A DNA stretch of 64,000 nucleotides from Pavona decussata. Taxonomy: Eukaryota. A model generated the notes under the pieces. The model worked only from the letters and a program-made list of their open reading frames with translations. It ran no database searches and was not told the DNA's origin. Positions 60,584-63,183 of the stretch are shown here, in pieces. Location of the stretch: assembly GCA_977016875.1 (NCBI GenBank), contig CDRNST010000002.1, positions 3,348,001 to 3,412,000 on the forward strand. The letters run 5' to 3'. A program made the translations under genes and the position numbers. How positions within the stretch are numbered: position 1 is the first letter of the stretch; the number at the start of each line of letters is the position of its first letter.

Positions 60584-63183
60584 TTACTTTTGGGTAGCGC
60601 TAAAGTAGTCGAGGAGCGTATTCGGCTTTCTTCTCTTGGCCACATCTTGGCTGAGTGGACGATCTTTGCGCTTCTTCGTGGTACAGGCTCGAAGCAACTC
60701 CCCTGAGACGGCGAGGTCGTTGACGTTTGCAAGGGCAGCCTGCGCAGGCGACAGTGCACTGCTCGGAACGAGAGTAGCGTCAGGTTCTGGAGATGCTGTG
60801 ATGGAGCATGGCGACTGTGGCCAGTACTGATCTACGTCGTTTAGGCGTGGAACGTAATATGGCGTTCTTGGCGTTATGAACAAATCTTGTTCTGCGTCCT
60901 CTCTTTCTTCTTGGCTGTAGTTATTTTCCACTGCTGCGAGCGGGAGGGGATCCGTTAAGCTTTTCACCAGGTTTTCGTCTTCTTCTGTAAGAAGGCCAAG
61001 CATTCTGCAAACTCGCTTCCGTTCAGCCAACGCTTCCTTAGACCGGAGGGTGCCGAGGTTACTGTGGTGGTTTTTGAGCTTGTCCTGCAGCACTTCGAGG
61101 TGGGCATTAATGGACGCTCTCCTGCTCCCATCGAGGTTGCCATGAAGAAGCCTAACGCAATCGTGCAACTCTCGCCCGGTCCTAAGGAGCCAGGAACCTT
61201 CAAACACTCGAGCTGCCTTCTCGCGGCGCTGTTCTTCCTCGTTCGCTCTCTCATCTCTACAGTAGTTGTCTACTTCCCTCTGAAGTGGGCTTGGCATCTC
61301 TTGATCTGGATCAAGTGGCAATATCGCCACTCTCTCCGCACTTATTCCCTTGTCTAGCAAGGCTTGTTTTTGCATTTCGTACTGCTGTCGTCTTCTGTCT
61401 TCTCGCATTGCTCGCTTCCCCTGTTTTTCTTTGAGTATGTGTTCAAGCTGTCTGCGTTGTAAACTGCCCGGATATGATCGGCCCACGGAATCCCTCAATG
61501 CATCCAAGACGTCGTCGGACATGGAAGCACTTTCACGGTCGTGTGGAACATTCGTGACTGCGCTAGAAGTGGGCTCCTCGACGAGGGAACTGGCCAGCGT
61601 GAGACATCTGAGTTCCTCTTTTTCCTTGTCTGCAGGATTCCATCTTCATCTTCACTGTCTGTGTCGTCTTCGTCACTTTCATCGCTCTCGCTGTCGCCTT
61701 GACAATCTTTTGCCTTTTCCGTGGCCCAAACCACGCAATCCATAGCGTGTTTCTTCAGCCATGCTGCGGTGCTCTTCTTAGGATTTAAAAGGGTCTTGAA
61801 TACATAATTGCGCAGTCGTTTCTCCATTGCTGGTTGGTGTGTTGGACCAAACTGCAGCTTACGCTGGGCGGTGATTATCATGGGGCACTTGTTGAGAAAA
61901 GCCTTTGCGGTCTGGTACTTTACATTATGTGCAGAGTATCCTCCTTGCGTCAAGACCTTCCAATCGGCAATGTCCAGGGTGCTCTCACTGGCTTCATCAA
62001 TGAAAATCACTTCAGTAAATGGCGTGATCATCGCTTTATTAAAGGCTCTTTGTTTGGTCACTGTTGCTATATTGCCATGGTGTATCAATCCCTGGATCGG
62101 AAAAAACAAACTTGTCTTGCCACTGTTCGCTTCGCCCACAAGGCACGGTACCTTGTCTTTGTGCTGCTTCTTGTTATAGTTCAGAAGCTTCAGAAAATCG
62201 TCACAAAAGTGGGCCACCTCGTCTGGGGACAAACTGTTTTCCAGGATCTCTTTGAAGTACTTAGGATCAGGATCGCTTGTGGAATCGTACGCGCAAAACG
62301 CCGTGGGCGATATTTTTCCAATGTCGTTGGCATTAATTGGACTCTGTACAAACGCACGCTTCTTTATGGACCAGCAAATACCGCCATTAACTTCAATGAG
62401 ATCGTAGTCGATCATCAAAGGTTGGAACAGCTCACAATGAGGATCTGATAGAAGCTCAATCACCTTTTTCATCTCTCGTATGAGCCTCGACTTGAAGTGC
62501 TCGTTCGTCGCGATAGTGTTGATGAATTGTATGGCCTCGCACTTAAATGAGTAAGTGTACTTTGCTTTTGGATCGCGCTTGTAGATCTTGCCTCGTTAAC
62601 TGACATATTCAAGTTGCTGCATTGCGATTGTTATGTCGTTTACTAAGATGGTCAGCTTGTCAGAAAGTCTTTTGTCACCCGTCATCTTCGTTGTATTGGA
62701 GCTGTTGAAACCAAACTTATCGATCTGTAGTTTGGCTTCAATCATCTTCTCTAGTGCCTTTGTCAGAGATTGCTAGAAGGTAGGGTTAAGGAGTGTAACG
62801 CGCGCGACGTTTTCTCTTCCACAGTCCTCAAGCTCTTGAGAAGACAGAGGAGACAGGAAATTATGAGTATCGTGCCTAAATTGTGCTCGTCCGGTGTGTG
62901 TCATTGCATTTATCGTTAATACATGTGATACCTGATTGGCTGTGACTGCAACTCCACATTTCAGCAGTGCCCTATGGACGATGAGAGGATTTGCCGGAGC
63001 ACCATTAGGTGTGGTTAGTGCTAACCAATAGTTAATTGCAGGCCAAAGCGATTTGTTGACAAGTGTTGGGTTGCCATTGATCATTTGCTCAGATTGTGTG
63101 CTTGGTACAGGACTATTTTCTCCCTCGTCATCGCTGATATCACTTTCTTCTATACTTCCTTTCTTTTTCTCTTGTGTAGCTAT
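60584..63183 (-). pseudogene. D5-like superfamily 3 helicase gene, ~866 aa reconstructed, with decayed start, two in-frame stops and one frameshift
   Basis: Walker A GEANSGKTS, Walker B VIFIDE, motif C PMIITAQ, Arg-finger-like AMEKRL, D5_N-like DLIEVNGGICWSI; ORFs 62773-63084 and 61495-62472 are in one frame separated by TAG 62773-62775 and TAA 62596-62598; a frameshift near 61630 joins ORF 60584-61522. Confidence 0.8.

Follow-up and report, generated by a model that had tools for sequence, protein, structure and literature searches.

Cryptons, for which terminal sequences and a circle model have been described in the accessible text of PMC3212892 and PMC13565253, are the mobile elements closest to the locus reported here. 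According to the accessible part of PMC13565253, their transposition lacks experimental demonstration. Within this group, CryptonV is described in the available portions of PMC8869645 and PMC4455052 as cnidarian and microsatellite-specific. Related replication genes occur in viruses. In papillomavirus E1 and polyomavirus large T (LT), an inactivated HUH domain is fused to a superfamily 3 (SF3) helicase, as outlined in the accessible text of PMC6668415, and the end module of Polinton-like viruses (PLVs) combines a tyrosine recombinase (YR) with a D5-like primase-helicase and undergoes modular swapping, as far as PMC11296320 and a preprint describe it. In corals, the available part of a polintovirus survey (PMC11131425) mentions only scattered recombinases and helicases.

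The locus that we analysed lies in a stretch of 64,000 nucleotides from the stony coral Pavona decussata (hereafter, the window), and it shares with CryptonV the tyrosine recombinase, the microsatellite targets, and the cnidarian host (as described in the accessible part of PMC8869645). Its ends are also like Crypton and YR sites, for which the available text of PMC3212892 gives short terminal direct repeats with arms of 11-13 bp and a spacer of 6-8 bp, and the element further displays the Crypton traits of intact YR catalytic residues, short arms with a spacer, and neither a reverse transcriptase nor a long terminal inverted repeat. The element, compared with CryptonV by description only, adds an SF3 helicase gene and a non-coding arm that resembles an origin. 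The main text of PMC3212892 never uses the term helicase. No description of such a two-gene element was found in the literature searched, though the ORF may already be noted in Repbase Reports 12:2034, in the Kojima review of 2020, or in supplements. Overall, the element is a transposon of CryptonV-like type that probably carries its own replicator and origin.

While the pairing of a predicted, inactive HUH domain with an SF3 helicase recalls E1 and large T, the element differs from these in its D5-like collar, a long extra C-terminal region, predicted introns, the lack of a capsid, and integration by a recombinase. With the PLV end module it has the gene pair and the modular swapping in common, but it is only 8-10 kb long and lacks a primase motif, virion genes, and long terminal inverted repeats. 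Helitrons and Replitrons are eukaryotic transposons with an HUH domain, and the best fold matches discussed below include a Helitron transposase, yet their HUH domain is the active transposase, whereas the predicted one of the element is devoid of catalytic residues and leaves the definition of the ends to a separate recombinase. Endogenous nimaviruses (majaniviruses) also have a C2H2-bearing tyrosine recombinase and simple-repeat targets (accessible text of PMC10871703), but these are of ~280-400 kb with virion genes, and the recombinases were compared by description only.

A decayed helicase gene with two predicted introns

The minus strand at 60584..63183 contains three ORFs, and the TAG, the TAA, and the frame change that break them up (Table 1) were correctly noticed in an earlier sequence-only reading of this DNA. 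Once joined, the pieces of the helicase gene total 866.7 codons. The search for intact homologues that the same reading had advised returned 126 matches to the helicase in the coral's own genome, many of them in open frames of 800-930 codons, and in sibling copies a single frame of this length spans all three ORF pieces. Because the siblings read through every piece without a break, the three ORFs are, by sequence comparison, one decayed helicase gene, as had been proposed, and the possibility of three separate genes is ruled out. A host gene is also ruled out, as the helicase gene is multi-copy within delimited elements. In its collar/ATPase region, the window copy has a DNA identity of ~96-97% to five siblings.

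We place the helicase start at ATG 63486, in agreement with the first residue of the NCBI gene models P0005 and P0008, which both splice together the same three exons. GCC-ATA-GCT at 63183 had been taken for a mutated start codon, an interpretation that must be abandoned, since all five close siblings with a printed frame start have ATA or GTA at this position too, and it falls within exon 2. For the introns, we compared 17 copies from four subfamilies and found GT..AG to recur at two fixed codon positions, with unrelated sequence in between (for intron 1, this is so among subfamilies A, B, and C). The motif-to-motif distance that spans intron 2 is 225-460 nt and shifts the frame between copies. 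From these sequences, we predict a gene of three exons with two spliceosomal-type introns. No splice joints were seen in contigs from 8 of the 19 listed runs, these runs being only guessed to be RNA and none recorded as such, and the contigs of runs so guessed traverse the predicted introns unspliced. In some distant homologues (L112, L115), the contigs end in A-runs and the frame is continuous from the first residue.

The window copy is dead, having a 12-bp deletion at the exon 1 donor, a 156-bp deletion, two stops, and one frameshift. The larger deletion, at 62856/62855, took away the acceptor of intron 2 together with the first ~48 codons of exon 3, among them K-D-H, the most conserved N-terminal motif, and for this reason the N-terminal domain had looked unrecognisable. 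In fact, of the 240 N-terminal residues considered in the sequence-only reading, ~25 are encoded by intron 2, while exon 1 and the ~48 codons of exon 3 are missing from them. Its statement that no HUH or AEP motif is present is supported insofar as no catalytic HUH or primase motif was found. The introns and the context of a two-gene tyrosine-recombinase transposon had both been missed.

Table 1. Features of the element in the window (positions are those of the window unless a contig is named)
Feature	Position	Strand	Remark
Left end: 6-bp spacer (57327-57332) and 13-bp arm (57333-57345)	57327..57345	+	adjoins CTT-rich simple repeat
63-bp tandem repeat array	57625..58308	+	upstream of recombinase gene
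Tyrosine recombinase gene, broken copy	58607..60306	+	TGA 59930-59932; frame change near 60001
Acidic linker and charged C-terminal region, basic tail	60584..61695	-	linker 61695-61642; frame change near 61632
SF3 ATPase/helicase domain	61726..62136	-	Walker A, Walker B, motif C (T-x-Q variant), Arg finger
Arg finger	61824-61813	-	window copy
Motif C	61884-61864	-	window copy
Walker B	62010-61993	-	window copy
Walker A	62136-62113	-	window copy
D5_N-like collar domain	62140..62595	-	Foldseek, natural homologue model: poxvirus D5/E5
Exon 3, remaining HUH-like domain and collar start	62596..62855	-	premature stops TAG 62775-62773 and TAA 62598-62596
Intron 2 remnant (predicted)	62856..62931	-	acceptor lost in 156-bp deletion
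Helicase exon 2	62932..63215	-	holds ATA 63183 and strand 2, acidic loop, and strand 3 of HUH-like fold
Intron 1 (predicted)	63216..63289	-	GT..AG shared in subfamilies A, B, C
Helicase exon 1, start ATG 63486	63290..63486	-	donor lost via 12-bp deletion near 63290
TATA-like box, inferred promoter	63532..63539	-	~50 nt upstream of exon 1 ATG
Right (helicase-side) non-coding arm start, 295-bp duplication	63681..64000	.	candidate origin G000:C2:3412379-3413138 and right end G000:C2:3413622, both just past the window

The element, its ends, and its recombinase

The element that houses this gene is 8.3 kb long, with similarity to its siblings starting sharply at ~57330 and stopping at G000:C2:3413622, ~1.6 kb past the window. 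All 26 left ends examined have the same boundary, 18 of them with the same 6-mer. At the right, the next base is C in every case (25/25), and a simple repeat follows 17 of these 25 ends vs 5 of 2000 background 30-mers. TC is the sole sequence that both ends have in common. Head-to-tail junctions, ten of them exact, consist of the 13-bp arm, the 6-bp spacer, and the inverted arm. The adjacent units of tandem arrays are mostly 99.7-100% identical, and such near-identical units could in part be assembly artefacts. The element family is recently active.

Convergent with the helicase gene is the recombinase gene, which encodes a C2H2-type finger, the tyrosine recombinase, and a C-terminal Myb domain. 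The catalytic set of R, K, HxxR, H, and Y is invariant across 10 aligned proteins; the YR label comes from motif inspection, and Pfam gave no integrase match for the recombinase. The Myb domain is weakly like those of telomere-repeat-binding TRF proteins (best E 0.008), and it is possible that it serves as a targeting module.

After search rows were merged per locus by hand (126 to 67 for the helicase, 118 to 105 for the recombinase), a convergent recombinase was found at most 9 kb from 57 of the 67 helicase loci in the coral's own genome, and 48 of the 105 recombinase loci have no linked helicase. Forty units of 4.8-10.1 kb could be delimited, 28 with both genes and 12 with the recombinase only. 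The ORF inventory of these units contains no virion ORF, be it for capsid proteins or for a packaging ATPase, for which there is also no room, and no reverse transcriptase ORF. Those helicase-less units that we compared derive from full units by internal deletion or are chimaeras of them, and retain both ends along with the whole arm or most of it. Because helicase-less units too have multiplied and formed arrays, the helicase gene is not needed in cis.

Various arrangements of the element were also observed. At G000:C15:1546820-1562978, two copies meet at their right ends across a 4-bp spacer, and it appears that one right arm served as a target in inverted orientation. Arrays at G000:C91:3885171-3903361 and G000:C44:1374180-1398735 mix subfamilies, or helicase-less with full units, and in such arrays one recombinase could plausibly acquire different helicase-origin modules. 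Some 15 partial matches to the recombinase follow one another in tandem at G000:C89:1970014-2081638, spaced 5.3 kb or 7.2 kb apart and with no helicase. At G000:C368:47600-48470 and 93390-93600, ~170 bp of the left flank of an array recurs within the microsatellite of its right flank. A helicase-less unit at G000:C150:22582-31822 harbours a nested insert of ~3.7 kb, the ORFs of which presumably resemble a Harbinger-type transposase and a PHD-finger protein.

Collar, ATPase, and C-terminal region

Fold matches and motifs both uphold the earlier assignment of a D5-like collar and an SF3 ATPase. When the AlphaFold model of a natural homologue (P0124) was searched against the PDB with Foldseek, poxvirus D5/E5 came out on top (best E 1.1e-3), and comparison of this model with viral D5-like proteins gave E values of 3e-5 to 2e-4. 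Among 255 homologues with a Walker A motif, the acidic Walker B pair is found in 224 and the Arg in 242, while the motif C position holds Q in 105 and N in 99; judged by these residues, the SF3 ATPase motifs are intact in the family. Pfam matches on 43 homologues were all weak, namely DUF5906 (26/43), Parvo_NS1 (20/43), and PPV_E1_C (15/43), the last being a likeness to E1, and Pfam found nothing informative in the helicase pieces of the window copy. Sequence searches of the PDB with the helicase gave no significant match (the E1 chain 1tue reached only E 0.89), PHROGs gave weak ATPase matches only, and the ESM Atlas had no usable match to the N-terminal and C-terminal regions.

A sign of selection is seen between subfamilies, where synonymous sites are saturated while dN has reached 0.14-0.27 for the collar/ATPase and 0.25-0.47 for the HUH-like part. 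As described in the sequence-only reading, an acidic linker leads into a charged C-terminal region, and the latter is clade-specific.

The N-terminal domain is predicted to be HUH-like

That reading had also called for AlphaFold and Foldseek analysis, which was done on natural homologues and gave the D5/E5-like collar described above. For the N-terminal fold, we used the isolated domain (236 residues) of an intron-free natural sibling, the model of which has a pLDDT of 90.5. HUH Reps and an HUH transposase make up seven of the top eight VIA rows, with Z-scores of 6.0-7.2 and rmsd values of 3.2-4.0 over 93-126 residues, though all scores of this domain fall below the VIA threshold of Z = 8 and generic ferredoxin-like folds come within 1 Z unit of the HUH rows. 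The HUH matches are SIRV1 ORF119 (which we take to be a Rep), the Helitron transposase, and the Vientovirus, nanovirus, and circovirus Reps. Most of the Rep matches extend to residues 205-215 of the 236, and most of the generic ones end near residues 140-157. SV40 LT gave a Z of only 4.9 (VIA). Neither an AEP primase nor the E1 DNA-binding domain is among the listed VIA rows, and the N-terminal alignment has no conserved acidic strand motif of the AEP type.

To locate the HUH sites, secondary structure and alignment were used rather than residue-level superposition, and, as placed in this way, a His is found at either site in none of 104 sequences and a Tyr at the YxxK position in at most 4 of 194. 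K, D, and H of the K-D-H motif are nearly invariant, occurring in 192, 193, and 187 of 195 sequences, respectively. These motif counts are profile-based, with 224 of 402 proteins matching the N-terminal profile, and the proteins are related rather than independent. We thus predict an HUH-Rep-type fold that lacks the catalytic His and Tyr, the match scores being modest. The novel N-terminal fold envisaged earlier gives way here to what is predicted to be the same design as in E1 and LT. Since the predicted fold is closer to CRESS Reps than to LT, the loss of catalysis was probably independent.

A candidate origin in the helicase-side arm

In seven of eight subfamilies, the helicase-side arm contains an imperfect palindrome of 458-1242 nt, as compared with none of 24 control blocks; the arm of subfamily H is the one with no palindrome. 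The palindrome centres are mostly 77-100% A+T and are flanked by inverted 9-nt iterons, the sequence of which differs by subfamily. Here, same-strand CCG pairs number 102 at a spacing of 9 nt and 54 at 18 nt; no other spacing has more than 8, and the three controls do not exceed 7. This 9-nt signal comes from six of the eight subfamilies, and is missing from subfamilies A (that of the window) and F, which have degenerate iterons only. Among subfamilies A-D, the recombinases are 95-100% identical, the helicases 58-77%, and the arms barely align. Judging from such comparisons, it is with the helicase, and not with the recombinase, that the arm and iterons are exchanged. Origins of dsDNA viruses have inverted initiator sites around an AT-rich core, and we regard the helicase-side arm as a candidate replication origin. 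Moreover, the analogy to E1 and large T that had been drawn from the helicase gene is now also supported by this origin-like arm.

Proposed mechanism and alternatives

Our preferred reading, to which we assign a probability of roughly 0.6, is that of a two-gene, capsid-less tyrosine-recombinase transposon, the intact helicase of which is the likely initiator that copies an excised circle from the element's own origin. The recombinase would join the two 13-bp arms over the 6-bp spacer and so excise a circle, which would integrate either where TC occurs in a pyrimidine-rich microsatellite or at the terminus of an earlier copy. As the metal-binding His and the catalytic Tyr are absent, the predicted HUH-type domain would bind DNA without nicking it. 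Its binding sites may be the inverted 9-nt iterons at the AT-rich centre of the right-arm palindrome, where the D5-like SF3 domain would then melt and unwind the origin for synthesis by host primase and polymerases, as with E1 and large T. Replication would in this way convert excision and integration into copy gain, and the helicase-less deletion derivatives would be served in trans. Of this scheme, the ends, the target preference, the gene content, the loss of residues, the structure of the arm, and its co-variation are observed features, whereas we infer the circular stage, the binding and unwinding at the origin, the help from host polymerases, and the trans-complementation.

Excision and reintegration alone should give no copy gain. 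With a putative replicator, a candidate origin, and a circle junction that is defined, the family makes the copy-gain question of Cryptons directly testable; several natural helicase-origin pairs are usable for specificity tests. The family would also be a capsid-less link joining transposons, PLV end modules, and E1/large-T initiators. More tentatively, and with somewhat less than even odds, the family may be a distinct class of animal mobile element in stony corals and octocorals, i.e., an integrating nuclear plasmid with a tyrosine recombinase, a tumour-virus-style initiator, and an exchangeable origin, in which an HUH nickase was turned into an origin-binding domain independently and for the third time. 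If so, a site-specific recombinase would be paired in this class with its own swappable origin module.

Alternatively, the N-terminal domain might be a non-canonical but active nickase that works through K-D-H and a nearby S/R, with rolling-circle or rolling-hairpin replication from the palindrome, as in parvovirus or CRESS Reps. This would fit with its nearest folds being active Reps and not large T (the low LT score given above), the near-invariance of K-D-H-x-N, and the long palindromes and near-identical tandem arrays, which suit the formation of concatemers. Yet His is missing from both HUH sites in all 104 sequences and no Tyr is conserved, and the accessible text of PMC6668415 holds both the HUH and the Tyr motif to be essential for nicking; we consider such an activity unlikely. 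A helicase that acts merely as an accessory to transposition, whether in target opening or in junction resolution, with the arm as a regulatory or by-product repeat, seems less probable still, and indeed very unlikely. Here, the many recombinase loci without a linked helicase would be accounted for, and the simple Crypton model, as set out in the available part of PMC3212892, requires the recombinase alone, but the helicase co-varies with the arm and iterons, while one recombinase is shared across helicase subfamilies.

A different origin of the gene pair can be envisaged as well, in which the element is the replication and integration end module of a Polinton-like virus that has been stripped of virion genes, or a satellite that depends on a large coral DNA virus for replication or packaging. 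In PLVs, a tyrosine recombinase and a D5-like SF3 helicase are commonly found as a pair (PMC11296320, accessible text), the collar of the element is D5-like, and the zinc-finger recombinases of nimaviruses target simple repeats, as the available text of PMC10871703 relates. Against this, none of the 40 units has a virion ORF, neither IMG/VR (two alignments) nor phage records (tblastn) contain relatives of the helicase, and the N-terminus is HUH-like rather than primase-like in a gene with predicted introns of the spliceosomal type. We find this scenario improbable; it addresses where the element came from and whether it needs a helper, and it can coexist with the reading of the helicase as an initiator.

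Distribution of the family and other features of the window

The element family is widespread in anthozoans. Named homologues occur in the stony corals Oculina, Montipora, Porites, Acropora, and Desmophyllum, and a distant clade, ~30% identical, in the octocorals Paramuricea and Dendronephthya. On 26 short contigs of the distant clade, no recombinase was seen. Six helicase genes of this clade (L097, L099, L102, L103, L107, and L108) start a few hundred bases from simple repeats of the ATC, GAT, or CAA type that come with a common end-like motif; their apparent intron occupies another position.

Elsewhere in the window, a plus-strand ORF of 569 codons at 11926-13635 has a DUF3504 match (E 6e-17) and is a CryptonA-type or domesticated Crypton recombinase that is unrelated to the element. 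An intronless rhodopsin-family GPCR gene (7tm_1, E 6e-49) is located on the same strand at 44032-45237, and two diverged copies of a repeat (~81%), with a spacing of ~970 bp, lie upstream of the element at 53728-55099.
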